From a virus, in the IMG/VR virus record IMGVR_UViG_3300030329_003954, positions 27,107 through 91,106 of that record: DNA of 64,000 nt; one strand, given 5' to 3'. The notes beneath the pieces were generated by a model. The model saw only the letters and a list, made by a program, of their open reading frames with translations, made no database searches and had not been told where the DNA came from. Shown piece by piece: positions 10,265 to 63,455 of the stretch. Made by a program: the position numbers and the translations under genes. The first letter of the stretch is position 1; each line of letters starts with the position of its first letter.

Positions 10265-12307
10265 ATGGCAATTCCAACCAGTCCATCCGTTGTAGTTCTT
10301 GAAAATGATATTTCGATTTTCACCCCGAATATCAACTCAAGCGTTGTAGGCATAGTCGGCTTCGCTAACAAAGGTCCGATCAATAAGCCCACTCTTATTA
10401 CGAGCCAAGAGAATCTCATTAGAAAGTTTGGTAAACCAGACACAACCCTTTTGGGCCAAGGGCTTGAAGGCGCTCTTGAAGTGTTAGAAGCTACTAATCA
10501 ATTGTACTTTGTTAGAGGTATTGATACTGATTCTGCTTCCTCTTATGCCTCAGCCGCTATTACTGTTGGTGCGTCTCCGGCAGTTTTAGTTAGTGGCTAT
10601 GTTCCCAGCGTCAACGCCTCCTCTATCCTGTATCAAACGAAGAGTAACGACGGCACAAAGAGTGCCCAGGGGGTTGTTACTCTCGTAAGCTCGACAGACA
10701 CAGTTGGAGACACCTCTGCGGTTACCCGTGCAAAGATTTTTGAAAAAGCATTTGACCCTGGCATTGTTGGGAATCAGGATGTCTTTGCATTTGTTGATGG
10801 CAATGATGTTTTCTTGGGTTCCCGATTCGCAGGTTCCGGTGCAACTCTTCAATTATCGGCTAACTACCTCGATGGACACGATCAAGAACCTTTAGGTTTC
10901 TCAGGTCTTAATATCATGGGGGTTGCCGATGAAGGCTTCTTACCAGATAATTATGGTGTTAGTGGTAACAATGTGACGGTCAGCGGCTACAGTTCTTCTG
11001 ACGTTGCTCTCAATGCATACTCAATCTACCCTGGCATGGGTTACAACTTTAGTAGCCTTAGGGATGGCTCAACACAAGGAATTTCAATTGAGCTTAACAA
11101 CGTCTCGGTTAGGGATCAGTTGGTGATTAATGACAGCGGCTCTCAAGTTGAATCCTACAATGCGATTGAGCTTGCTGCTTCAAGTGCCAATTCTGTTGAG
11201 TTCTTACTTAATGTTGATGAAGACAATAATGAGTCGGAATACGTGTTTGTGGAGCTTGAGAAAGACACAAGTGATTATGAGGCTCCTTCCTCATTCGGCG
11301 TGACAGCAGCGGCGGGTGGCTTCATAGGTGGTTCAGCCTTGGATAACAGGCCAGACGCTACACCTAGATTCTTGAAACTTGTTGATGGCGACTACAGATT
11401 TATTGACGGGGATAGTGGTGCTACTAATGCAACGTCCTTAATTGGAACGGCTGCAAAGAAAACTGGAATCTATGCTCTCGATGATGATTCTTTAAACATC
11501 TCGATTGGTATTGTTCCTGGTGTTACCGATGATGCTGTTCAAAATGCCTTTATTACTTTGGCTGAGTCTTCCAAAAACTTCTTAGCCTTAGTTGCTCCGC
11601 CGTTTGGGTTGGATGAGGTTCAAGATGCGATTCAATGGATCAACGGTCAAGACGCTGCAACCAGAGCAACTGCACTGAACTCCTCTTACGCTGCCGTTTA
11701 CTGGCCGTGGGTTCAGATCTTCAACGCCTTTGCGGGTGCAGAAGAATACTATGATCCGTCGATCTTTGCTGCTAGACAGTGCGTCTTCACAGATGCTGTC
11801 TCGGAGCCTTGGTTTGCTCCGGCTGGTTTCCGAAGAGGGCGTTTAACTAAGCCTACGGACGTTGAGATCGCTCTTAACCAAGGCGATAGAGATGCCCTTT
11901 ACTCTAACTCGATCAACCCGATCACTAAGGATCCAACCACGGGTATTACAATCTTTGGTCAGAAGACCACGCAAAGAGCACCAACTGCTCTTGACCGAGT
12001 CAACGTCCGCAGATTGATGATCTATACTCGTAAGGTTCTGCTTGAGCTTGGTAAGCCCTTCCAGTTTGAGCCTAACGATCAATTCACATGGGAACTGGTC
12101 GAGGAGTCGATCAACCCGTTCCTCGACGACCTTCTGGCTAGAAGAGCCATCGTTGAAGGTTCTGTTAAGTGCGACTCGACAACGAACACTCCCGCAAGAG
12201 TTGATAGAAATGAGCTTTGGTGCTCGGTGACAATCAAGCCTACGAAGGCTGCTGAAACGATTGTCTTCGAGGTCAACCTCACTAGCCAATCGGCAACCAT
12301 TAACTAG
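10265..12307 (+). CDS. gp18: Tail sheath protein (gp18-like)
   Basis: SPSVVVLEND, GFANKGP, YWPW, PWFAPAG, FGQKT, DRVNVRRL, FEPND. Confidence 0.96.
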   Translation: MAIPTSPSVVVLENDISIFTPNINSSVVGIVGFANKGPINKPTLITSQENLIRKFGKPDTTLLGQGLEGALEVLEATNQLYFVRGIDTDSASSYASAAITVGASPAVLVSGYVPSVNASSILYQTKSNDGTKSAQGVVTLVSSTDTVGDTSAVTRAKIFEKAFDPGIVGNQDVFAFVDGNDVFLGSRFAGSGATLQLSANYLDGHDQEPLGFSGLNIMGVADEGFLPDNYGVSGNNVTVSGYSSSDVALNAYSIYPGMGYNFSSLRDGSTQGISIELNNVSVRDQLVINDSGSQVESYNAIELAASSANSVEFLLNVDEDNNESEYVFVELEKDTSDYEAPSSFGVTAAAGGFIGGSALDNRPDATPRFLKLVDGDYRFIDGDSGATNATSLIGTAAKKTGIYALDDDSLNISIGIVPGVTDDAVQNAFITLAESSKNFLALVAPPFGLDEVQDAIQWINGQDAATRATALNSSYAAVYWPWVQIFNAFAGAEEYYDPSIFAARQCVFTDAVSEPWFAPAGFRRGRLTKPTDVEIALNQGDRDALYSNSINPITKDPTTGITIFGQKTTQRAPTALDRVNVRRLMIYTRKVLLELGKPFQFEPNDQFTWELVEESINPFLDDLLARRAIVEGSVKCDSTTNTPARVDRNELWCSVTIKPTKAAETIVFEVNLTSQSATIN

Positions 12308-12315
12308 TAATAATC

Positions 12316-12903
12316 ATGGTAGATAGTTTTTTAAAGAACGACTACAGAGCGAACTTTGAGCCTGGGAAGAGCCTTCCTAAGATCTCCACGAAGCTCGACG
12401 CTGTAAGATCGTATCAGTTTGAAGTGAAGTTCTTTGGTGTTCCGCCTGAGTTCATCGGTACCCAACAAGTTTTAACTGCTGCTGCGAAGCAAGTCAGTCC
12501 GGTTGGTGGTGCGGTTGATGACATCGTTGTTGATCGTCTTAATGATAAGATGTACTACCCTGGTAAGTTCACGCCTGAGGCTGTCACGATCACCTTTGAT
12601 AATCAGTTATTGACTCAAACCACTCCTGCTCTTTGGAATTGGTTTAAGACAATCTATGATCCGATTTCGGGTGACATGACCAAGCTGGCTGCTCCTGGTG
12701 GTCCTGGGAACAGATCATTCAAGGCTAACAAACTTACTATTCTTGAGCTTGATAACACTAACGAGCCACATGCCTTCATCGAAATGTATGGTGTGTATCC
12801 CACAGGTGTTAGATACTCGGAGAAGAACTACGCCACGAATGATTTCTCCACTGTCGAAGTGACCTTCCGCTACGACTTCGTGGACTACGACAAGATCAAC
12901 TAA
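12316..12903 (+). CDS. gp19: Tail tube protein (gp19-like)
   Basis: Follows sheath; YPGK, GVYP, VTFRYD. Confidence 0.88.
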   Translation: MVDSFLKNDYRANFEPGKSLPKISTKLDAVRSYQFEVKFFGVPPEFIGTQQVLTAAAKQVSPVGGAVDDIVVDRLNDKMYYPGKFTPEAVTITFDNQLLTQTTPALWNWFKTIYDPISGDMTKLAAPGGPGNRSFKANKLTILELDNTNEPHAFIEMYGVYPTGVRYSEKNYATNDFSTVEVTFRYDFVDYDKIN

Positions 12904-12923
12904 CCTCTTAGATCTAATTCGGG

Positions 12924-12957
12924 TAGCCTTCTCCCTAAATAAGGGAGAGGGCTATTT
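12924..12957 (+). terminator. Stem-loop terminator
   Basis: TAGCCTTCTCCCT-AAATA-AGGGAGAGGGCTA. Confidence 0.65.
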
Positions 12958-12971
12958 GTCTATTATAAGTT

Positions 12972-15329
12972 ATGGATAAAAGAGATTTACTAAAAAGGTT
13001 TAGCAAAGTTCACAACAAAAAATTAAGATTGTTGGAACAACAGGATGACCCTCGCATTCAACAGGCTGAGGGTCTTCTCGCAAACATACAATTCTCTCAG
13101 GATCCTACATCGCCCTACTTAAATGTGGGGCAAACCCTAGACGGTAAAACAGTAAAGTACAATCCAAAAAGCGGAAAATTGACAGGGGCAAATAGCTTTC
13201 AAAGGGCTACTTATCTTAATGGGAGGTTAAGTCCCCCAGAGGGTAAAAATCCTGAGGATGCTTTCAATAAAATGATAGGCTACCTTGTTGATGAGGCAAG
13301 CCCTGAAGCAGATCAACCTGTTATTGACCCTGTCTTAGATGAAAAGTTAACTGAATTAGGTGTAGACATAAAAGATCCTGAGTTAGTTCAACCCCTTATA
13401 ACTTTGCTGGATAAAGCAAAGGCTAGCAACGTTGGTCGTGATGGCGGTAAAAACGCTAGAAATCTTGTGAGATCTTTAGTGGCTGATTATCCAGTTGTGG
13501 TAAAAGAAGGGGAATTCTACAGAGTCGAGCCGAGAGAGTCTAGTGTGGAAAGAGCTTTTAATTTAGCTGAGGCTCTCAACGGTATAGGATCCGAAGGTTA
13601 CTGCGAAAGGTTTCAACGCACTGACAAGGGTGACATGGTAGTGTATACTGACTCTGGTGAAGGGCAAGAAGGGACTGTCTTCAGTAAAGGTAAAGCCAGA
13701 GCAATAGCTAACATGATCAGTGATTGCGATGACATTAAGGAGATCAATATAATACAGGAAGCCGCCGAAAGCTTGGGAGGCGAAAGTAATATACGAGGTA
13801 ATACTTTAGAGTATCCCCCAGACTTATTCGCATTAAGTAGAACCTACTTCAAGAATAGAGAATCGCTTACTGAGGAACAACGTAAGAGATCTGAGAAGTT
13901 AATTAAAGACGTAGCACTTAAAATTGAAACAGGGATTAGATCCTTAATCGAAAATCGCGAAACATGGTTAAGGACAGCTAGAGATGCTGCCATCCCACTA
14001 GAGAGCCAAGCTGAGTTTGATAAACTGATGAGTTTGTTGGAAGACAATGGTAGGAATATTCAGGCTTCATTTCATGTGGCTTCCTTATCCAATAAAGAAA
14101 GGCTACCTGATTTATCGGTCAGATCTGGAGAAGTTACTAAAAAAGGTAGGAAGCAAGACTCAGTAGAGATTTGGTATGAGGAGGGTGCAGCTAAAAAAGC
14201 TTTAGATCAGGAGAAGCTAGAAGCTGTTGATGCTAAAGATCTATTCGATAGCCTCAACAAAACAGATTACTACAATGAGTTAGTTGATGCTGGTTACTTA
14301 AAGCCAGGGCAGCAAGTGTATGTGGGTGAGATTAGTTACAAAAACTATATCGCAAATGCTAACACAATTATGGGGAGCTTTTCAGATAATAACACTGGGG
14401 ATTTTATGAGCGGTAACGCTAAAGACAACCCCGTATGGAAAACTTTCACAAAAGAAATAAGTTCGAAGACGATGGCTCAATATCGAGGTGAGTTTGATGC
14501 TATTCACAAAGAGCAGATGCAGATTAGGAAAGAGATTAACTCATTATCGAATAACATAGAGACAGAAGTAAACGGGAAAAAGGTGACAGTTAAAGCTTTA
14601 AACGAGATTATCAAGACCACACTGAACAACATACAGAAGAACTCTACGTTCACAGACACGCAACGAAACCAATTATTCAATAAACTAAGTAAACAAGCTA
14701 CGGCATACAAGAATTCTAAAACTAATAAAGAAAGAAAAAAGATAGAATCTCAAATGAAATCCGCTCTTCTCATGCCTGCGTTAATGAGTAATCTAAAGGA
14801 AAGAGGTCCGCACAATAAGGCTGTGCAGATTTATGCATTAGGCTTAAACTATGCTGCGGGGGCCTCATATAGTAACAACACTGTGTTGCAGACAAACATG
14901 CTCAACGAAGGTATTAGCTACACTACTACTCAGAACAAAGCTTATCAAGAGATTGCAAAGTCTATTAGGCTCAACAATGATTCATGGGATTTAAATATCA
15001 CTCAGAGTGGGTTATCCTTTACTAGGGCGGGTAATAAAAAATCTTCAATCTCTCTAGCGATGACAAGAGGAAACCTACAGTCTAAAAAATCTGACACACT
15101 GACGAGAGAGGGTAAGAAGATAAGATTCCTTGGTGCGGGTGGTGAGAGACGAACTGTTTCAAAAAAACCTAACCCATTAGGAGCAGCAGATACTTCTAAT
15201 CCTGATAGGTTAGCTCCTTATGATAAATTGATCACACCAAGAGAAAGCTTGATGTGGGATGCATTGAACAAACTTCATGAAGCTTTAGGCGTCATCAAGG
15301 AAAAAGTAAGAATCATCAATGTTGACTAG
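12972..15329 (+). CDS. 785-aa hypothetical protein, possible internal protein with PD-(D/E)xK-like motif
   Basis: Long ORF; N-terminal LLE site; KQD...EISYK. Confidence 0.5.
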   Translation: MDKRDLLKRFSKVHNKKLRLLEQQDDPRIQQAEGLLANIQFSQDPTSPYLNVGQTLDGKTVKYNPKSGKLTGANSFQRATYLNGRLSPPEGKNPEDAFNKMIGYLVDEASPEADQPVIDPVLDEKLTELGVDIKDPELVQPLITLLDKAKASNVGRDGGKNARNLVRSLVADYPVVVKEGEFYRVEPRESSVERAFNLAEALNGIGSEGYCERFQRTDKGDMVVYTDSGEGQEGTVFSKGKARAIANMISDCDDIKEINIIQEAAESLGGESNIRGNTLEYPPDLFALSRTYFKNRESLTEEQRKRSEKLIKDVALKIETGIRSLIENRETWLRTARDAAIPLESQAEFDKLMSLLEDNGRNIQASFHVASLSNKERLPDLSVRSGEVTKKGRKQDSVEIWYEEGAAKKALDQEKLEAVDAKDLFDSLNKTDYYNELVDAGYLKPGQQVYVGEISYKNYIANANTIMGSFSDNNTGDFMSGNAKDNPVWKTFTKEISSKTMAQYRGEFDAIHKEQMQIRKEINSLSNNIETEVNGKKVTVKALNEIIKTTLNNIQKNSTFTDTQRNQLFNKLSKQATAYKNSKTNKERKKIESQMKSALLMPALMSNLKERGPHNKAVQIYALGLNYAAGASYSNNTVLQTNMLNEGISYTTTQNKAYQEIAKSIRLNNDSWDLNITQSGLSFTRAGNKKSSISLAMTRGNLQSKKSDTLTREGKKIRFLGAGGERRTVSKKPNPLGAADTSNPDRLAPYDKLITPRESLMWDALNKLHEALGVIKEKVRIINVD

Positions 15330-27883: not shown

Positions 27884-29194
27884 ATGCCCTACCATATTAG
27901 CGACAACACCAAGCGTGGTTGTCTGTACCTTCTCAAGAAGGACATTGAGTTCTTCTCTGAGATCGTTCCACTTCTAAAGGCTGATTACTTCGACTTTCCT
28001 GCTTACAAGAATGTTTTCTTGGGGGTAAGGAATTACTACGATAAGTATCGAAAGCTGCCCTCTGACTCAGTTCTGCCAGACTACATTAATGCTAGCGTCT
28101 CTGGTGCGGCTGACACTGGTATTGATTACGAGAATACCATTGCAGAGATCAACACTATCGACAAGTCTTGCCTTGGTGACCGTGAATTCCTTCTCGACAC
28201 CGTAGAAGAGTTCGCTCGCCAAAAGGCAATGGACGGTGCGGTTCGTAAAGCGATGGTCATCCTAAACGAAGAGGGTGAAATCGCAGAGGTTGAGGAGCTT
28301 GTAAAGAACGCGCTACTCGTAAATCGCAACGTAGACGTTGGCCAGGACTACTTTGAAGAAGTTAACGCTCGCCTATACAGATCTTACCAGGATAACAACC
28401 AGCGAAAAATTTCTACAGTCTTCGCTACCCATGATAGGCACCTTGAAGGTGGTTTAGCAGCTAAAGAGCTTGCCATTGTGGTCGCACCTCCAGGTGTTGG
28501 TAAGTCACTATACCTTGTGAACCAGGGTGCTCATGCCATCTATGAGGGTAAGAATGTCTTGTATCTCTCATTGGAGATGAGCCAAGATAAGATCGCAGGA
28601 CGATTCGACTCTGTGCTCACAGAGATTCGTAATGCTGATCTCAAGAAGCCTCATGCTCAGTTGAAACTTAAGGATCGCCTTAAAGAAGTTCAGAAGAAAA
28701 CCAACGGCAGGCTGATTATTAAAGAATTCCCAACGGGTGCATCTAATGTAAATCAGTTGCGAGCCCTGCTGGTACAGTTGCGACTTCACAAGGACTTCGT
28801 ACCTGATCTGATTATTGTAGACTACCTGGAGCTTCTACGTCCAAACCGTATTATTGATTCTGAGTATCAAGCTCAACAGAGAATCGCAGAGGAGCTTCGA
28901 GGGCTTGCGGTCGAGCATAATTGCCTTGTCTGGACAGCCTCTCAAACCAACCGTCAGGCACGCCGTGTCAACATTATCACAGACGCAGAGCTTGGCGACT
29001 CCTATGGAAAAATCCGCCCTGCTGACTGGGTCATCTCTTTGAATCAGACTCAAGAGGAGTATGATGAGGGTCAAATGCGGGTCTTCGTTATTAAGGCTCG
29101 TGACTCGAAACAGCACTATCTAATTAATATTGGGATCGACTACACGACCCTTCAGATGAGAGAACCATCACATGAAGAACAGCAAGCCGAGTGA
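27884..29194 (+). CDS. gp41: Replicative helicase (gp41/DnaB-like)
   Basis: APPGVGKS, SLEMS, IVDYLEL, WTASQTNR. Confidence 0.93.
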   Translation: MPYHISDNTKRGCLYLLKKDIEFFSEIVPLLKADYFDFPAYKNVFLGVRNYYDKYRKLPSDSVLPDYINASVSGAADTGIDYENTIAEINTIDKSCLGDREFLLDTVEEFARQKAMDGAVRKAMVILNEEGEIAEVEELVKNALLVNRNVDVGQDYFEEVNARLYRSYQDNNQRKISTVFATHDRHLEGGLAAKELAIVVAPPGVGKSLYLVNQGAHAIYEGKNVLYLSLEMSQDKIAGRFDSVLTEIRNADLKKPHAQLKLKDRLKEVQKKTNGRLIIKEFPTGASNVNQLRALLVQLRLHKDFVPDLIIVDYLELLRPNRIIDSEYQAQQRIAEELRGLAVEHNCLVWTASQTNRQARRVNIITDAELGDSYGKIRPADWVISLNQTQEEYDEGQMRVFVIKARDSKQHYLINIGIDYTTLQMREPSHEEQQAE

Positions 29195-56612: not shown

Positions 56613-56962
56613 ATCATTTCTAGGGGGATGTGATTAGTTATATGTATGGCGCAAAGCTAATTACAACATTATTGCATAAAAGTCAAGCTAATTAAATGCC
56701 CTTGTAAGAAAAGTCAAGGTACAATTATTCGCAATCTTTTACAAATAAACTAAAAATGTATAGAATTAGGAGTACAATTGCTGCACACCTGTAAAATAGT
56801 TCCATGGTAATAAAAGTCAAGGTTTAATTATCACTTGAAACTCTGCAAAGGGACCATATTATAACAGCAATTGTAATCCACAATAAAATTGCAATTAAAA
56901 GACCGTATGGCATAAAAGTCAAGGTAAAAATAACCCCTTGCAAGAAAAGTCAAGGTATAAAA

Positions 56963-57039
56963 TGGTACACCCTATAGGAATCGAACCTATAACCTACGGC
57001 TTAGAAGGCCGTTGCTCTATCCAATTGAGCTAAGGGTGC
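56963..57039 (-). tRNA. tRNA-Arg(UCU)
   Basis: ACGGC-CTTCTAA-GCCGT; CCA. Confidence 0.95.
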
Positions 57040-57057
57040 CTATGCAGAAAAGTCAAG

Positions 57058-57288
57058 CTATAATAGCCTGCCCTGGGAGTAGATTTTACCCCTATCTGAG
57101 GGGGTTCCACACTTATCTAATGCTGTTACGGTCACCTCGTACCCATACTCACCGTATTTTTTCTTACCCATCCTACGAGCAAGAGAGATAGCTTGCGGAA
57201 AAGTCAAGCTCCAATCTTTCTCAACCTCCTCGAAGAGGACAGAGATGTTATTCTTGGCAAGGTAACACCATTCTATGTGATATCTCAT
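57058..57288 (-). CDS. Hypothetical protein
   Basis: GGAGG SD before ATG 57288. Confidence 0.5.
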   Translation of the reverse strand: MRYHIEWCYLAKNNISVLFEEVEKDWSLTFPQAISLARRMGKKKYGEYGYEVTVTALDKCGTPSDRGKIYSQGRLL

Positions 57289-57293
57289 AAAAG

Positions 57294-57458
57294 TCAAGCC
57301 TCCTCAAAAGCTTCTGATAGGGTTTGAGCGAGAGCGTAAACATGGTCCTCTACAGAGTCACCATCCTCAAGACGCTCGTAATAATCAGACTCCTCAGATT
57401 GTATCACATACTCTAAGAGTAAGTCAAGAGCCTGTTGCTGCTTGTAGTTTAATCTCAT
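57294..57458 (-). CDS. Small acidic protein (54 aa)
   Basis: TTGACT-N16-TATGAT-N6-ATG; MRLNYKQQQALDLLLEYV... Confidence 0.55.
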   Translation of the reverse strand: MRLNYKQQQALDLLLEYVIQSEESDYYERLEDGDSVEDHVYALAQTLSEAFEEA

Positions 57459-57500
57459 AGCTACATCATAACAAAGAAAAGAGAAAAGTCAAGGATAAAG

Positions 57501-57597
57501 GGTGGGGTCGGGATCAATGCTAGCCGATGCATCCTACTGAAAGATGCCCACCGTCATCTCGCCTCACTTTATTTTTATTCGTGTGAGACCTAACCGC
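57501..57597 (-). ncRNA. Putative structured ncRNA
   Basis: TTGACT-N15-TAGCTT upstream; hairpins GTCTCAC/GTGAGGC and AGATG/CATCT; loop GGTGGG complementary to 3' CCCACC. Confidence 0.45.
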
Positions 57598-57714
57598 TAG
57601 AAAGCTACGAAGAAAAGAGAAAAGTCAAGCCTTTTAGTGACATGCTCAGGTCTCAAGTGGACGCATAGCGCCGTGAACAGTTTTGGACATGTCGAGGTCC
57701 GTTAGAATGAGAAA

Positions 57715-57781
57715 CCCGACAGCGTAGCAGACACCAACTCTTTTAGCCTGATTTGTTGCAACGTGGTTATACGCTACCGGG
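57715..57781 (-). ncRNA. Putative structured RNA downstream of the mini-tmRNA
   Basis: 12-bp closing stem CCCGGTAGCGTA/TACGCTGTCGGG. Confidence 0.45.
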
Positions 57782-57784
57782 TAA

Positions 57785-57868
57785 TGGTGGAGCCGGTGGG
57801 AATCGAACCCACGTCCAGGATTGGCCCACATTGAGGTTTTCCATCCTGTCGAAACCATAAACAGCCCC
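57785..57868 (-). ncRNA. Mini-tmRNA (tRNA-like domain only, 84 nt)
   Basis: GGGGCTG-TTTATGGTTTCGAC-AGGAT-(21 nt)-ATCCT-GGAC-GTGGG-TTCGATT-CCCAC-CGGCTCC-ACCA; G3:U70. Confidence 0.85.
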
Positions 57869-57878
57869 ATAAAAAGTA

Positions 57879-58172
57879 ACACCCCACCGGACTTGACCCA
57901 GGCACGCACTACTGCTTACTCATGTAAGACTCCCACTTACAAGACTGGCACTTCGGCAGCGACGCTAGTCTTTTTAGTAGCTCTCTCGGCTACCCCGGAG
58001 TATGTCCCCGGTGAGGTGTTGGATTGTGAAAGAACTACGCCCCCATATACTGCTCACCGGGCTACGATTTCATCGGTTTGGTGAGAGACCCGAGAGGAGT
58101 ATCAGGCTGCGGCAGTTCTGGCTTCCAAAGGATTCATACGCTCCGCGCTTGCCTGTCCTACCCCTCTCGGGT
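57879..58172 (-). ncRNA. Putative structured ncRNA(s) upstream of the mini-tmRNA
   Basis: 14-bp stem (58088-58172), 9-bp stem (58007-58061), multi-stem junction (57879-58005); no credible ORF. Confidence 0.55.
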
Positions 58173-58181
58173 ATGTCTTCC

Positions 58182-58208
58182 ATTATACATATCTCACAGG
58201 GCTGTCAA
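58182..58208 (-). promoter_or_regulatory. Sigma70-like early promoter
   Basis: TTGACA-N15-TATAAT. Confidence 0.75.
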
Positions 58209-58233: not shown

Positions 58234-58313
58234 TTGATGTAAGTGCTTGTGAATAAAGGACTTATGGCCGTCGCGGCGGCCCGCCCCAAACCCTTTATTT
58301 GCAAGGGTTTACG
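58234..58313. repeat. Double-palindrome cassette repeat R1
   Basis: 25-bp TAAGT-N15-ACTTA, 22-bp GC spacer, second 25-bp imperfect palindrome. Confidence 0.85.
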
Positions 58314-58338
58314 GCTGGCAGTTAAAAGTTAGAGCGGA

Positions 58339-59139
58339 CTAGTTCATCCGCGAGGCCCAGTCCTGGGTGATGGCCCAGAGTCCTTGGTTCCAGTCCGTGT
58401 CGGCCACGATGTTCCGACGCTCACGCACACGGCGCAGGCGGTTGTTGGCATCGGGCACCTTGAAGCCTCCACGGGTGCCGTTCTCCTGCACACGGTTGAA
58501 CACCGACCACAGATCGTTGGGCATGTCGTCACGACGACGAACCTGGAGCAGACCCGAGACGATGCGATCGTCTACGTTCTCCTCGGGATCAAGCCCGAAG
58601 CGCAGACGACCAGCCTCGCGGGCAAACTGGCGAACGTCACCGTCCGACAGGCTGGTGCCTTGGCACGTCTCAGCGAAGCCAAACAGGCCAGGAGCCGCAT
58701 CGATCGCACGCTGCACAGCAGCTTGCGTGTCCTCGTTGATACGGTCGTGCCGGATCTTGATCGTCTCGTTGGCAGCACCGAAAGGTGCGATCATGCCGTT
58801 CTCGCACACGAGACGGTAGAGGCCGACAGCCATGATGAACGTCGATGACCAGTTGCCCGAGTTCACGATGTTAACCGTGGGGAAGATCGACCCGAGCTTA
58901 CGGGTGTCGCCATTGTCCGTAGGCATACGCATGGTGATGCGGTGCTTTTGGAAAGCCTCGTTGCCAGCGGTGCGCTTCTGCGTCTTCTGCTGGCTTGCAG
59001 ACTTGATGGTGAACCCGTCGCTCATCATCTGCTCGACGATGTCGGCAGTGCGGACGTGCTGGTATCGGTCGCTGACGTGAGGAGCAGGCGAATCGGAGAA
59101 GGCCGCAGGGGCCACAACTTGCAGTTCTTGGAGATCCAT
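58339..59139 (-). CDS. DUF932/DUF945-family protein
   Basis: VSDRYQHVRT, KHRI..R, GLYRLVCENGM, LWSVFNRVQEN. Confidence 0.85.
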   Translation of the reverse strand: MDLQELQVVAPAAFSDSPAPHVSDRYQHVRTADIVEQMMSDGFTIKSASQQKTQKRTAGNEAFQKHRITMRMPTDNGDTRKLGSIFPTVNIVNSGNWSSTFIMAVGLYRLVCENGMIAPFGAANETIKIRHDRINEDTQAAVQRAIDAAPGLFGFAETCQGTSLSDGDVRQFAREAGRLRFGLDPEENVDDRIVSGLLQVRRRDDMPNDLWSVFNRVQENGTRGGFKVPDANNRLRRVRERRNIVADTDWNQGLWAITQDWASRMN

Positions 59140-59201
59140 GATGCGTAAATTATAGCTATCTGATTTGCAATTGCAACAAAAGTAATCGATATTTTCTTCA
59201 A

Positions 59202-59285
59202 TTGACGTAAGTGTCTATCAGTAAAGGACTTAGGGCTCGCGGGGCGGGCCGCCACGCCGTAAACCCTTTATTGACGGCAGGTTAG
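59202..59285. repeat. Cassette repeat R2
   Basis: Palindromes 59208-59232 and 59260-59284. Confidence 0.9.
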
Positions 59286-60070
59286 AACGCCAACCCCATT
59301 TCTTCGCACATTTCGTCGAAGTCTGCGAGATTTAGAACCTCGACTTGCCGTTCGGTGAGCTTGAACGGGGAATCCTCGCGCCGAAGCTTGCCCTTGGCAG
59401 TAAGCCCAACGTAAACACCGATAGGGTCCATGAAGCGCAGGTCGCTATCATCGCCATTATAAACGGGACGACCACGAAAAGTATTAGGAACACGATCAAA
59501 AACAATAGCAACATTGCCTCCATGGCGCAGGACTTTATCGCATTTATCATCGTTTAGCTCCGAACGGGAAAAGGTGAGGTGGTAGTTATCAGGGAAAGTA
59601 GGGTTGGTGAGGTATTCCATCATCAGCCCGTAGTCTTTGGTGTAATCGTAAAACTGGATATCTGAGAAACGATCGAACAGCGATGCACGGTATGCAGTAG
59701 CTCGGCACCAGTCAATATCGCTCGTGCCATTAAGACGCACGCACGCATTTAGCCCGAGCTTGGTAGCTTTCTTTTTGTGGGCTGTGATCTCCTTATATAG
59801 GTCTCCTAGGAAGGTCGCCCGATCATTTACATAGCGAGCCGTGCGAGCCTTGCGGGCTTCCTGGATCGCGTTAGTGGTCTCGCCCTTCCTGAAGATGCCA
59901 CCACGCCCCGCCTCATTCAGGCAGAAACGGATGCACTCTTTCGAGGCGTGCTTACAGACGTTGATCAGGCCCGACGCTTTGGACGGTGCAAGGTGCATGA
60001 TGGCAGACAGCCAGCCATACTTGACGCCCTTTTGAGTCTTGGGATTCGATGTTGTTAGCAGCTTAGGCAT
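59282..60070 (-). CDS. Gp88-like phage protein
   Basis: C..AS..C...CL...GRG, VRLNGTSDI, FYDYTK, YHLTFS, GDDSDLRF.D. Confidence 0.8.
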   Translation of the reverse strand: MPKLLTTSNPKTQKGVKYGWLSAIMHLAPSKASGLINVCKHASKECIRFCLNEAGRGGIFRKGETTNAIQEARKARTARYVNDRATFLGDLYKEITAHKKKATKLGLNACVRLNGTSDIDWCRATAYRASLFDRFSDIQFYDYTKDYGLMMEYLTNPTFPDNYHLTFSRSELNDDKCDKVLRHGGNVAIVFDRVPNTFRGRPVYNGDDSDLRFMDPIGVYVGLTAKGKLRREDSPFKLTERQVEVLNLADFDEMCEEMGLAF

Positions 60071-60120
60071 AGCCCGTAATTATAGCAACCCTCCGGCAGA
60101 TTGCAAGCGATAGTTTTCGA

Positions 60121-60205
60121 TTGACGTAAGTGTCTATCAGTAAAGGACTTAGGGCATCGCGGGCGGCCCGCCCGCCCGTAAACCCTTTATTCACGGGGGT
60201 TTACG
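60121..60205. repeat. Cassette repeat R3
   Basis: Palindromes 60127-60151 and 60179-60203. Confidence 0.9.
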
Positions 60206-60263
60206 ACGGCGAACGGATTTGGGGGGTTGGGCAGTTTTTCAGCGTGCCCAGGCTGTTCCGATG

Positions 60264-60470
60264 TTAGGCGGTAGCGACCCGCGTAAGGCGGTTGAAGACC
60301 TCGCGGCAGTGCTTGTAGCTGCCACGGTGCTTCACCTTACCACCAACCATCACGAAGTAGACCGGAGTCTGGTTAGGGCGATCCATGTAGAGGTGGATCT
60401 GGCCGGTCGAGTCGATGCAACGGATGTTGCGGGAAAAGAAGCCAGCAAACTGGCCTTGCGAAACTGTCAT
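60264..60470 (-). CDS. Hypothetical early protein
   Basis: GAGGAG SD. Confidence 0.55.
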   Translation of the reverse strand: MTVSQGQFAGFFSRNIRCIDSTGQIHLYMDRPNQTPVYFVMVGGKVKHRGSYKHCREVFNRLTRVATA

Positions 60471-60472
60471 AA

Positions 60473-60751
60473 TTACTCCTCAGAGTCGGAAGGGATACTG
60501 GTGTCCCACTCCAAGGGAGTGACACCCAGCTTGAGAAACTCCCGCCCTTCGGGCGAGAGGTTGGGGAAAGCATCTTGGATGCTAGCCCCGTTGACCCAAT
60601 CATACACCTGGGCCTCGGTGATTTCAAGTGGCATGGCGTGTTTTACGCCAGTAAACGCAGAGATAGCGCAGACGACCATCTGGTAGTCACCCAGCTTGTG
60701 AGCGCGGGTGATGTGAGGCTTGTTAGCGAATAGTGCGGTTACGTTTGCCAT
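60473..60751 (-). CDS. Hypothetical early protein
   Basis: TTGACA-N16-TATACT-N6-ATG; IQDAFPNLS...REFL..G.TP.EW motif. Confidence 0.7.
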   Translation of the reverse strand: MANVTALFANKPHITRAHKLGDYQMVVCAISAFTGVKHAMPLEITEAQVYDWVNGASIQDAFPNLSPEGREFLKLGVTPLEWDTSIPSDSEE

Positions 60752-60781
60752 GTCTCTAGTATATCAATCGGTATCGAAATG

Positions 60782-60880
60782 TCAATCGCGGCCAGTGGGA
60801 TTTTCAGGTTCAACCCTGAGTAGGCCATCCCGTTTGTCTGTCGGGCCTGCGCGAATTGGGGGGGTTAGTGCCTCTCTCAT
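60782..60880 (-). CDS. Possible 32-aa leaderless peptide
   Basis: TTGACG-N15-TATAAT-N7-ATG; MREALTPPIRAGPTDKRDGLLRVEPENPTGRD. Confidence 0.35.
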   Translation of the reverse strand: MREALTPPIRAGPTDKRDGLLRVEPENPTGRD

Positions 60881-60939
60881 GCTATCAATTATACATACTC
60901 TGAGGGGCCGTCAACCCCTGTATTCGTGTTTTTCTTTAA

Positions 60940-61023
60940 TCGACGTAAGTGTCTGTCAGTAAAGGACTTAGGGCTCGCGGGGCGGCCCGCCCGCCCGTAA
61001 ACCCTTTAATTACAGAGAGTTAG
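60940..61023. repeat. Cassette repeat R4
   Basis: Palindromes 60946-60970 and 60998-61022. Confidence 0.9.
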
Positions 61024-61340
61024 GACGGGAAGGGTTGATCGAATTGCATAATGGTACCCAATCCCGTTTTGGGATCGGCCATTTCCATATTGCGGATCTC
61101 GCCCTGCATTGCAAAGTATGCAGCACGGGCACCGAATCGTTTACCGTTCTCGTCTCGCGTTTGGATGGCACGCCTAGTATTCACGTAGGCTTGCATGAGG
61201 TCATCGGCCACATTTAGCGGACAGTTGTCCTTGTGCGAACTATGCCACGCCAGAGCGAGTTGCAGAGAAGTCTTGTGTAAAAGCGCATCGGTGTGATGTT
61301 GCCCCTGGTAGAGTTCTTCGGACCATTTAGGCTCAGGCAT
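61020..61340 (-). CDS. Hypothetical early protein
   Basis: GGAG SD before ATG 61340; stop codon within R4. Confidence 0.55.
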   Translation of the reverse strand: MPEPKWSEELYQGQHHTDALLHKTSLQLALAWHSSHKDNCPLNVADDLMQAYVNTRRAIQTRDENGKRFGARAAYFAMQGEIRNMEMADPKTGLGTIMQFDQPFPS

Positions 61341-61515
61341 AGTAATACGGTGCTCCCATGTGTTGCATAAGGTCATTCTCGTAACAGGAAATCAGATCCT
61401 GCAAAACGGGATAAGGGATACTCTCGTCAAAGTGCTCGTAGATGTCATCTACGTCCAGCCCTTGATCGTAATACCCAATCGCCGCGTCAATTTCTTCGTC
61501 AGTCATGTTGGTCAT
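61333..61515 (-). CDS. Small acidic protein
   Basis: In operon. Confidence 0.5.
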   Translation of the reverse strand: MTNMTDEEIDAAIGYYDQGLDVDDIYEHFDESIPYPVLQDLISCYENDLMQHMGAPYYYA

Positions 61516-61519
61516 TATA

Positions 61520-61744
61520 CTAGTTCCTTCTGTGTTGTAAAGGGGTAAACCCGAAATCGTCGATCACCTCATCTTCGGATATGCGATGCTCTCCAAACCA
61601 AATCTCTAGGGTGTGATTTAGCATACCATCCCATCCATGCTGGCAGATCTCCTCGTAGAGGTCTTGATCCTCATCATGATCGAAATACCTAGCGATGCGG
61701 TTCTGGTTCGCATCGTCGTTCAGGTCGTCCGAGCTATGTAGCAT
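61520..61744 (-). CDS. Small acidic protein
   Basis: GGAGG SD. Confidence 0.55.
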   Translation of the reverse strand: MLHSSDDLNDDANQNRIARYFDHDEDQDLYEEICQHGWDGMLNHTLEIWFGEHRISEDEVIDDFGFTPLQHRRN

Positions 61745-62225
61745 TGTTGGCCTCCTTCTTCGCCTCCTTAGCTACCTTATCCTGGTAGTCCTCGCAGATG
61801 TTGCGGAAGATCCTGCAACGGGCACGCAGGGTCTTTTCGAAGACTTCGACCGCGAAACGGCGAGCAGCCGCAACATCACCCGGTAGATCGGGTTCCTCAC
61901 CCGTGAACTTCGGTCGCACATCCCAGAACTTGAGAGCCGAGATCAGCAGCGGCAGAGCACTAGCCGGAACCCACCCGATGACTTGATCGGTCCACTCGTT
62001 GTCGTCATTGCGGACGAGGTCCACGATATCGCCGTTCGGCTCGAATACGGCCACCTCGAAGTCCGAAGACTCGTAGCCAGTCTCGTCCTCATGGTATGGC
62101 GCATTCTTGTTTTCGCAGTAGTTGCCAGGACCGAATGATACCGACAGCTTGTAGCCGTTGGAGATCGTGTACTGGAAACCACGCTGCCAGACGAAGAGCT
62201 TCGCGTTGTTGTGCTTGTGAACCAT
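61734..62225 (-). CDS. Hypothetical early protein
   Basis: TTGACA-N15-TATAAT-N7-ATG 62225; NGYKLSVSFGPGNYC, EVAV. Confidence 0.7.
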   Translation of the reverse strand: MVHKHNNAKLFVWQRGFQYTISNGYKLSVSFGPGNYCENKNAPYHEDETGYESSDFEVAVFEPNGDIVDLVRNDDNEWTDQVIGWVPASALPLLISALKFWDVRPKFTGEEPDLPGDVAAARRFAVEVFEKTLRARCRIFRNICEDYQDKVAKEAKKEANNAT

Positions 62226-62283
62226 GCTATCCATTATACCTATTCTCAGGGGCTGTCAACTAGGGAACTACACTTTTTTTAAA

Positions 62284-62367
62284 TCGACGTAAGTGTCTGT
62301 CAGTAAAGGACTTAGGGCTCGCGGGGCGGCCCGCCACGCCGTAAACCCTTTAATTGCAGCGGGTTAG
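62284..62367. repeat. Cassette repeat R5
   Basis: Palindromes 62290-62314 and 62342-62366. Confidence 0.9.
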
Positions 62368-62370
62368 CTA

Positions 62371-62835
62371 CTACCAAGAACTTTGGTAGTAGGCTTCGCT
62401 CCATAGGCTGTCATTGGATTCCAGGTGATGGATCAGACTAGTACAGACTTTGATTGTCCGTCGCAGTTCGTCCGCGTAATAGGAATCGTAGTCAGTAGAG
62501 CCAAAGAAAAAGCCACTGACGGTAGGCATTGTCTCATGACAGGTTTTGTGGTCTCCTTCGTTGTAGGCATCCAGAGCGAACATACAATCCGCACGGAGTT
62601 CGTGCAGGTGTTCAGGCTTCACGTTGTACTGCCCGCAGTCATCATTGCCATCCTGCACATGCTCGACGAACCACTGATGAATGTGGTTTGCCTTGCGCCA
62701 ATATGCGACAGCATATTCTTTGGTGACGCACACCCAATCATTGGGATCGCGATGCATGGTATCACCATCACCGCCAAATCCCTTGATGCTACACTTGGAA
62801 TGCTCTTTGAGCCTGAGGTACATGTCTAGTCCCAT
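62371..62835 (-). CDS. Conserved-type phage hypothetical protein
   Basis: MGLDMYL, YWRKANHIH.WF, GFFFGS..YD, YQSSW. Confidence 0.8.
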   Translation of the reverse strand: MGLDMYLRLKEHSKCSIKGFGGDGDTMHRDPNDWVCVTKEYAVAYWRKANHIHQWFVEHVQDGNDDCGQYNVKPEHLHELRADCMFALDAYNEGDHKTCHETMPTVSGFFFGSTDYDSYYADELRRTIKVCTSLIHHLESNDSLWSEAYYQSSW

Positions 62836-62844
62836 AGCGGTATT

Positions 62845-63123
62845 CTACTCCTCTTCGCCTTCGGTGTCACTAAAAATCTCGCCAGCGTAGATGCTTTCGA
62901 GGTCCAAGATCAGAGTGATCATCTCCCAGATCATGGGATAGTTCTTTTTGAACTCATCCGCAGCCTGATCATTCATCCATGCCACCCCATGTTCTAGGTC
63001 GGCTTGTATAGCGTAGGATAGACGCTCCTGTAGCTCACTTAGTCTCACTTGTCTGTGCCTCTTCTTGGGCGTGCAATCACGGTAGCTGATGAGTTCAACT
63101 AGACGCTCGAATGGGTTGTCCAT
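62845..63123 (-). CDS. Hypothetical early protein
   Basis: TAATG coupling. Confidence 0.6.
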   Translation of the reverse strand: MDNPFERLVELISYRDCTPKKRHRQVRLSELQERLSYAIQADLEHGVAWMNDQAADEFKKNYPMIWEMITLILDLESIYAGEIFSDTEGEEE

Positions 63124-63314
63124 TAGGATCGGATGGGGTCAATGAGGTAATAGATTTCGGAGGTAGTGAGACCCCAGTTGAGGTTCTGCATGTTGATGCG
63201 GAAGTAGGGTTCGCCCTGGAGTTCCATCTCGCTCACGATGTCCCGCATACGGGCGACATCCATCTTCGGGTCGATGCGTTGGACGATGGCGAGGAGTTCT
63301 TGCTTACTCTTCAT
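63123..63314 (-). CDS. Hypothetical early protein
   Basis: TTGACG-N15-TATAAT-N7-ATG. Confidence 0.6.
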   Translation of the reverse strand: MKSKQELLAIVQRIDPKMDVARMRDIVSEMELQGEPYFRINMQNLNWGLTTSEIYYLIDPIRS

Positions 63315-63371
63315 GCTATCAATTATACCTATTCTGGGGAGCCGTCAACTAGCTATCCCATCTTTTTTTAA

Positions 63372-63455
63372 TTGACGTAAGTACCTGTCAGTAAAGGACT
63401 TACGGCCCGCGCCCCGGCCCGCTCGATCATAAGTGCCTTATTTGAAGCGACTTAC
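63372..63455. repeat. Cassette repeat R6
   Basis: Palindromes 63378-63402 and 63430-63454. Confidence 0.85.

Follow-up and report, generated by a model that had tools for sequence, protein, structure and literature searches.

An 84-nucleotide tag-less tmRNA gene in an uncultured marine T4-like phage

Analysis of the window, a 64,000-nt stretch of viral DNA, identified an 84-nt gene for a tag-less tmRNA that consists of the tRNA-like domain (TLD) only, here called mini-tmRNA, on the minus strand at positions 57785-57868 in the genome of an uncultured marine T4-like phage. The window forms the last 64 kb of a 91,106-bp IMG/VR record (linear class, 77% complete by CheckV). This record encodes a T4-type major head protein, tail sheath, protease, DnaB-like helicase, ribonucleotide reductase, and SbcC-like nuclease, which bears out the original prediction that the element is carried by a phage. 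The capsid protein shares only 28 to 30% identity with its counterparts in cultured phages (KVP40, for example), so the phage is without a close cultured relative. DNA similarity searches against cultured phages left a 701-bp region unmatched, and the 84 nt themselves produced just two partial 31-nt matches, to an ordinary tRNA-Ala(UGC) and to a weak fragment.

Trans-translation is the main bacterial pathway of ribosome rescue and quality control and a target of antibiotics. With moderate confidence, we interpret the locus as a functional phage gene for a TLD-only tmRNA of the type known from mycobacteriophage DS6A, whose product would act as an SmpB-dependent, charged competitor of host tmRNA and suppress ssrA tagging. 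The mini-tmRNA probably interferes with the rescue-and-tagging system of the host. A compact natural RNA with which phages blunt or redirect trans-translation would serve as a tool as it stands and would point to the limits on phage protein synthesis.

Identity and anatomy of the element

A scan of all Rfam families matched positions 57785-57868 to the tmRNA family RF00023 with 75.1 bits (E 2.4e-27), far beyond chance and above the gathering score of 47; the scan lists the best match per clan only, here RF00023, which would hide any weaker mt-tmRNA match. The alignment runs from model position 1 to 374 with 304 positions deleted and 13 nt inserted, and our own covariance model (R1) scores the window element at 84.9 bits. 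ARAGORN, applied to the window, called six ordinary tRNAs and missed the mini-tmRNA. Of the two kinds of search proposed with the original prediction, Infernal with Rfam returned a tmRNA and ARAGORN returned no call. A tRNA-Ala gene, with a D stem and an anticodon arm bearing an alanine anticodon, was considered and rejected, as ARAGORN made no such call and the tmRNA model beats the tRNA model in the Rfam clan competition; a genuine tRNA-Ala(UGC), that of phage Bobbio, reaches only 35 bits on R1.

The minus-strand reading given in the original prediction is exact to the letter, and the alanine acceptor that it described (G3:U70 with discriminator A73) is present, with all seven acceptor pairs formed (Table 1). 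The segments sum to 84 nt: acceptor strand (7 nt), D-loop analogue (14 nt), AGGAU, 21 central nt, AUCCU, GGAC, T arm, acceptor strand (7 nt), and ACCA. The central 21 nt stand where a full tmRNA has about 300 nt of pseudoknots and tag ORF. The UUCGAC motif is as far from the 5′ end as its counterpart in E. coli tmRNA, and the last C of the motif pairs with the first G of GGAC. U17, C18, and G19 are named by E. coli numbering, cross-checked against the Rfam consensus line.

The mRNA-like domain of standard tmRNA (resume codon, tag ORF, and stop codon) was not found in the element, nor was the pseudoknot ring PK1-PK4 in its Rfam alignment. The triplets TAA, TAG, and TGA are absent from all frames of the 84 nt, so that no terminated tag frame is possible. 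An intact tRNA-like domain with no tag-encoding domain and in unpermuted order, as originally proposed, agrees with both the Rfam match and the gene order. A two-piece (permuted) tmRNA is ruled out by the order of 5′ strand, helix 2a, T arm, and 3′ strand. A T-arm-like hairpin located upstream was also rejected as a permuted piece; it closes its own 14-bp stem and shows no pairing with the 5′ strand of the element.

The single-sequence minimum free energy fold of the 84 nt recovers the acceptor stem, helix 2a, and T arm, with a folding energy that is unremarkable against controls (z -0.52). Because folding energy alone is not unusual, the case for the element rests on the covariance model and on comparison.

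Table 1. Features of the mini-tmRNA locus, in order of transcription on the minus strand (positions are those of the window)
Feature	Position	Strand	Basis or remark
Palindrome TAAGT-N15-ACTTA, just upstream of the promoter	58240..58264	.	Last of seven exact copies
Sigma-70-like promoter (TTGACA, 15 nt, TATAAT), ~315 nt upstream of the mini-tmRNA	58182..58208	-	Promoter-pattern match
Structured RNA rod, 143 nt, between promoter and mini-tmRNA	57878..58020	-	14-bp closing stem; z -2.49
U-tract after the rod	57871-57877	-	Sequence
Mini-tmRNA (TLD-only tmRNA) gene, 84 nt	57785..57868	-	RF00023; R1; identical allele in 4 contigs
Acceptor stem, 5′ strand, nt 1-7, including G3 of G3:U70	57862..57868	-	7/7 pairs with 57789-57795
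D-loop analogue, nt 8-21, stemless, ending in UUCGAC; U17, C18, G19	57848..57861	-	Sequence; SmpB contacts per PMC8363625
Helix 2a, 5′ strand AGGAU	57843..57847	-	Pairs with 57817-57821; family covariation
Central 21 nt: two extra pairs with a bulged A, A-rich stretch, 3-bp hairpin	57822..57842	-	Folding and family comparison
Helix 2a, 3′ strand AUCCU	57817..57821	-	Family pairing counts
GGAC linker with the A334 equivalent	57813..57816	-	Sequence; PMC8363625
T arm: 5-bp stem, 7-nt UUCGAUU loop	57796..57812	-	Rfam match; helix 100% paired in family
Acceptor stem, 3′ strand with U70, discriminator A73, and encoded CCA	57785..57795	-	Sequence; acceptor pairing
Hairpin with 13-bp stem, then U-rich tract, after the CCA end	57706..57781	-	z -1.44, weak

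Conservation, the wider family, and known systems

A metagenome scan with a pattern that only a short form with the T arm and acceptor of the window element can satisfy matched 15 contigs. The identical 84-nt allele is present in four of them, all from independent marine assemblies and two being Tara Oceans scaffolds, which indicates that the short length is not an assembly deletion and that the phage is marine. Across the clade of the window phage, the element is 82 to 84 nt long in 16 metagenome or viral contigs. A full-length tmRNA in relatives, which would have spoken against the original prediction, was sought, and independent assemblies and relatives returned these short forms; the one longer form found among relatives is a 123-nt variant, described below.

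In relatives whose DUF932 protein is 98% identical (L047 type), the allele at this position is 82 nt long. It matches the window element exactly in acceptor stem and T arm, while helix 2a is wholly replaced and yet paired (UUGCU/AGCAA versus AGGAU/AUCCU). Where the window element pairs the final C of UUCGAC with the opening G of GGAC, both partners have changed, from C-G to U-A, and L047-type variants have an inner 3-bp hairpin under a GCAA loop whose middle pair is flipped from C-G to G-C. Three of these relatives' alleles gave end-to-end Rfam tmRNA matches of 82 to 83 nt with 60 to 67 bits.

The 123-nt variant (L048:10553-10675) belongs to a more distant relative with a DUF932 protein 60% identical to that of the window phage. 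It retains ACCA, the acceptor stem including G3:U70, and a helix 2a of 7 bp. An insert of 59 nt contains several stop triplets, the second position of the T loop is altered, and the variant scores 37 bits on R1 and below the Rfam cutoff. This variant may be degenerating or may represent a distinct longer form.

IMG/VR was scanned with a looser pattern (UUCGAC, 20 to 50 nt, GGAC, and T arm) that left the acceptor stem unspecified. The scan matched 43 contigs; by our own estimate, well under one chance match is to be expected from about 25 fixed bases in such a collection. A perfect 7-bp acceptor stem is found in 35 of 44 loci, counting the copy in the window, which leaves 34 further short forms. 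All 35 have G3:U70 and A73, even though the pattern ignored the acceptor stem. As the alanine determinants are universal in a sample not selected for them, we argue that charging is under selection.

The 35 loci (window included) comprise 28 distinct sequences of 76 to 94 nt. In alignment-free counts based on anchors, positions 1 to 5 of helix 2a are paired in 27, 28, 27, 26, and 22 of the 28 sequences, and a single position has as many as six pair types. Covariation with pairing in 28/28 is also seen at acceptor positions 4 to 7 and, with four pair types, at T-stem position 2. An alignment of 36 sequences, which is fitted to the model and so biased toward structure in a way that the anchor-based counts are not, has 97% of its cells pairing, changes on both sides in 12 of 17 pairs including all five of helix 2a, and a T-stem helix that is 100% paired. 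The covariation score of this alignment is 0.557, compared to 0.124 for shuffles and at most 0.126 for slid partners, and none of 500 shuffles reached the observed value. The short length and the covariation that the original prediction proposed to look for in homologs were both found. These sequence comparisons show purifying selection on the gene for structure and alanine identity.

The interior that family members have in common is an A-rich stretch followed by a hairpin of 3 to 4 bp. The encoded CCA is missing in 15 of the 35 copies. At about 8 of 29 other carrier loci (L005, L006, L025, L030, L039, L045, and L065 among those with adjoining tRNAs), the mini-tmRNA is beside or within a tRNA array, with gaps down to 7 to 13 nt; ARAGORN called none of the mini-tmRNAs at the carrier loci. 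A stop triplet (UAA, UAG, or UGA) follows UUCGAC in 25 of the 28 distinct sequences, mostly where helix 2a meets the A-rich loop, and is absent in the window allele, L025, and L041. An "alanine then stop" mini-message was rejected as a general feature on account of these three members, and the stop triplets of the family are probably a by-product of the A-rich loop.

A literature term search returned no description of the family beyond DS6A. Tag-less tmRNAs had been regarded in the original prediction as known mainly from protist mitochondria, which overrated the novelty of the element, as a phage precedent exists: mycobacteriophage DS6A is listed with a "TLD only" tmRNA (Hudson, Lau and Williams 2014, PMC4131195; tmRNA Website tmID 11587 / Phage__Mycobacterium.9), and a 2025 tmRNA database paper repeats the case and adds plastid forms without a coding sequence (CDS) (PMC11915505). 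We located the DS6A element at JN698994 ~28478-28560 (L053:979-1061), an 83-nt stretch between gp33 and gp34 that is unannotated in GenBank. It scores 67 bits on R1, which was built without DS6A, over model positions 1 to 83 of 83, and falls below the Rfam tmRNA gathering score, which the window element passes (75 bits).

The two elements are alike in length (83 and 84 nt), G3:U70 and A73 acceptor, D-loop analogue, short helix 2a, A-rich stretch, small hairpin, T arm, and lack of a tag frame. Both are carried by phages and both are missed by standard annotation. They differ in that DS6A has GCAC and no encoded CCA, whereas the window element has GGAC and an encoded CCA, and the two share no related sequence beyond the conserved core. 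The carriers differ as well: DS6A, a temperate siphovirus of actinobacteria, uses tRNA-Lys as its integration site (PMC10865867), whereas the window phage is a marine myovirus, uncultured, that has a T4-type capsid and yielded no integrase. Since DS6A integrates at tRNA-Lys and not at ssrA, its element is not an attP. On sequence grounds, we assign the window RNA to the TLD-only phage tmRNAs of the DS6A type. The kind is thus already known from DS6A and barely studied, and the present case opens no new category and is confirmatory in value; with it, the DS6A type reaches beyond a temperate actinophage and includes an abundant marine T4-like lineage found repeatedly in Tara Oceans assemblies. 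The case also adds to the evidence for a widespread family that ARAGORN does not detect and annotation lacks.

Standard bacterial tmRNA (RF00023) shares with the window element a complete tRNA-like domain in the standard order. The 32-nt 3′ end of the window element is identical to that of eight full-length tmRNAs (346 to 362 nt) from Proteobacteria, Mycoavidus, and Clostridia metagenome-assembled genomes (MAGs), which the first 21 nt at the 5′ end also resemble closely. The strands of helix 2a are 21 nt apart in the window element and about 300 nt apart in standard tmRNA, whose PK1-PK4, resume codon, tag ORF, and stop codon it lacks. A host assignment from the 3′ end was rejected as ambiguous, identical ends being found in both Proteobacteria and Clostridia.

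Organellar tmRNAs without a CDS, of the jakobid mitochondrial type and the ~65-bp form of Mallomonadaceae plastids (PMC11915505), also have a TLD without a tag frame and presumed SmpB partners. They are products of organelle reduction, whereas the window element is a phage gene, and the likeness is known for the shared TLD only. Laboratory TLD-only fragments (Shimizu and Ueda 2006; ribosome crystal structure, PMC8363625) comprise the same part of the molecule; in the accounts given in PMC3895274 and PMC8363625, they are bound by SmpB and EF-Tu, move into the A site, and take over the nascent peptide in vitro. These are engineered truncations that imply no role in vivo, in contrast to the natural gene of the window. 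Full-length phage tmRNAs are likewise derived from ssrA, are carried by large or marine myoviruses, and often lie near tRNA genes or early promoters (PMC4131195, PMC9004378). Those of Bxz1-type mycobacteriophages and Bacillus phage G keep the tag-coding domain and are recognized by ARAGORN, neither of which holds for the window element. The two-piece tmRNA of OM43 phage Melnitz and pelagimyophages (PMC9004378) also keeps the tag-coding domain and is recognized by ARAGORN, unlike the window element.

Proposed function and competing explanations

Anatomy, conservation, covariation, and family membership were observed above; expression, charging, SmpB binding, and a benefit to the phage are inferred in the mechanism that we propose. 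The mini-tmRNA would be transcribed from the cassette promoter about 315 nt upstream, or by read-through, and then cut out like a tRNA, with RNase P acting at G1 and the 3′ end trimmed to the encoded CCA. G3:U70 is the main determinant for alanyl-tRNA synthetase (AlaRS), and host AlaRS would charge the RNA with alanine via G3:U70 and A73. Host SmpB would bind at the UUCGAC/GGAC elbow. SmpB was found neither in the 91-kb record nor in five large carrier phages (four of them at least 90% complete), so the mini-tmRNA must use the SmpB of the host. Together with EF-Tu, the charged RNA would compete with host tmRNA for SmpB and stalled ribosomes. Having no resume codon, tag frame, or stop codon, it would donate at most one alanine, and the net effect would be that host trans-translation, especially ssrA tagging for proteolysis, is suppressed during infection.

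The SmpB surface of the TLD is present in the element. In the known structure, the TLD elbow is contacted by SmpB: A15, U17, and A334 form the pocket that holds Trp122, G19, stacked on C18, packs against a hydrophobic patch of the protein, and the G19C change abolishes binding (PMC8363625). U17, C18, G19, and the A of GGAC are present in the window element at the E. coli spacing. Position 15 is a U, which is also the base found there in the eight full-length bacterial tmRNAs whose 3′ end is identical.

The two functions put forward in the original prediction, inhibition through sequestration of SmpB and rescue without tagging, are also the two leading explanations here. According to the summaries of Mao et al. 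2009 in PMC4131195 and PMC11915505, a DS6A-like molecule strongly inhibits tmRNA in E. coli whether or not it can be charged, perhaps by titrating SmpB; in these accounts, this inhibition is the sole in vivo result for a similar RNA, and the assay behind it was the plating of a tmRNA-dependent phage hybrid (PMC11915505). Because that inhibition needed no chargeability (Hudson 2014, PMC4131195), the strict alanine identity is left unexplained by a pure sponge. As far as sequence conservation can tell, entry into the ribosome is favored over a pure SmpB sponge, since alanine identity is strictly kept among loci that were not chosen for it.

In the main rival reading, which we consider rather unlikely, the selected function is productive rescue without a tag, in which the alanyl-mini-tmRNA and SmpB take the nascent chain from a stalled ribosome. 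Release would follow by drop-off, peptidyl-tRNA hydrolase, ArfB-type release, or repeated rounds, and the phage would gain by recycling ribosomes amid phage-induced mRNA decay while its proteins stay unmarked for ClpXP or Lon. Without a stop codon, however, the ribosome would hold the peptidyl-mini-tmRNA, and we know of no mechanism of release after the transfer of alanine. In favor of tag-free rescue, G3:U70, A73, the 7-bp acceptor, and an EF-Tu-compatible T arm occur in 35/35 loci from a search that did not ask for the acceptor stem, and the gene lies among tRNA genes here and beside tRNAs at the other loci listed above, as would be expected of a translation helper. It also agrees with the peptidyl transfer to TLD-only tmRNA in vitro (Shimizu and Ueda 2006, as cited in PMC3895274) and with the persistence of CDS-less tmRNAs together with SmpB in some organelles (PMC11915505), whereas the in vivo result summarized above was inhibition and nothing in our data separates rescue from an inhibitor. 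Unlikely in our view is an extended form of tag-free rescue, in which the mini-tmRNA is no mere SmpB sponge but an alanine-charged, ribosome-entering RNA from a co-regulated promoter cassette that frees ribosomes stalled on decaying mRNAs. The phage would thereby run a trans-translation of its own, with the ssrA degron replaced by a single alanine, or by a short tail of alanines if the RNA enters repeatedly. If this were true, the complete turnover of helix 2a between near-identical phages would represent tuning to, or escape from, host factors.

A tRNA-like role outside trans-translation, as a decoy for a nuclease or defense that targets tRNA or tmRNA or as a processing or stability element of a noncoding RNA, is quite improbable. 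The element does lie in a 1.3-kb ORF-poor stretch with conserved blocks and a structured 143-nt RNA, and a helix 2a that is wholly different in near-identical phages could reflect an arms race. The conserved nucleotides, on the other hand, are exactly those that define the tmRNA TLD and the SmpB surface, the upstream RNA and the mini-tmRNA are separable (see below), and a tmRNA-targeting defense system was not identified in this analysis. A nonfunctional remnant, be it a decayed full-length tmRNA, an attP or imprecisely excised ssrA fragment, or an assembly deletion, is very improbable and already largely refuted. Such an origin would fit the use of tmRNA genes as common integration sites with fragments left in prophages (PMC4131195, PMC9004378), the 32-nt 3′ end shared with bacterial tmRNAs, and a step in GC content from ~0.42 to 0.53-0.60 beside the element (~57.9 kb). 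Against it, both gene ends are present and paired, whereas an attP carries the 3′ part only, and no match to the tyrosine integrase family PF00589 was found in the 91-kb record (77% complete). The high-GC side carries the phage families GP88 and DUF932 and several PHROG matches, and the order of DUF932 gene, 400 to 470 nt of noncoding DNA, mini-tmRNA, small ORFs, and tRNA-Arg(UCU) is shared by L046, L047, and L048 from three other samples, by which a prophage/host junction at ssrA and a chimeric assembly were both rejected. The identical allele in four independent contigs dismisses an assembly deletion; the compensatory changes between close alleles and across 36 homologs, and the lack of a long form in relatives other than the 123-nt variant, also speak against decay.

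Upstream region and flanking sequences

A simple scan found no sigma-70-type promoter directly upstream of the mini-tmRNA. The nearest one (Table 1) follows a pattern with three matches in the window versus none expected, and the stretch of ~300 nt from it to the gene contains no ORF of at least 40 amino acids on the same strand. This promoter is the probable start of a transcript that reaches the mini-tmRNA, a role that its position suggests. A hairpin and U-tract lie between the two; with no adjacent promoter and this intervening structure, transcription of the mini-tmRNA is uncertain. The hairpin that follows the CCA end is a possible terminator of the unit and is absent from the relative L047.

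Seven exact copies of the palindrome TAAGT-N15-ACTTA, with a near-constant core, are confined to 58240-63454. Every copy precedes a promoter of the form TTGAC-NN-CCC...TATAAT on the minus strand. The block that they span has a GC content of 0.50 to 0.60, compared to 0.42 elsewhere, and holds GP88, DUF932, and small ORFs. The array of palindromes and promoters looks like a set of co-regulated cassettes with an operator.

The rod-shaped RNA between promoter and mini-tmRNA differs from that of L047 by three both-side changes in the closing stem. The module of promoter and rod recurs in L054 (~12690-12995), where a small hydrophobic ORF comes next and no mini-tmRNA is present, and a 17-mer scan showed that other mini-tmRNAs occur without the rod; the two are therefore separable. 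The rod could be a small RNA, an attenuator, or a terminator. Its use as a message supplied in trans was rejected, as the tag-like frame is deleted or diverged in L047 and L054 has the rod without a mini-tmRNA.

The 1.3-kb stretch around the element has no convincing ORFs and several conserved blocks. One block of about 75 nt (~57625-57700, minus strand) is near-identical in L047, with flanks that have diverged or been deleted. Short inverted repeats that exclude one another lie within this block, which may be another small RNA or a regulatory element. A second block of about 65 nt (~57540-57605, minus strand) forms a hairpin around an A-rich loop, is conserved with L048 (~10690-10760), and is absent from the close relative L047. 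At 56900-57700 on the minus strand, a box of TTGACT plus a T-run is repeated before the starts of several small ORFs and the tRNA-Arg gene, and sigma-70-like promoters with this TTGACT box as the -35 element are found at 57492, 57427, and 57297. The same TTGACT and T-run box is also present inside the 59-nt insert of the 123-nt element of L048.
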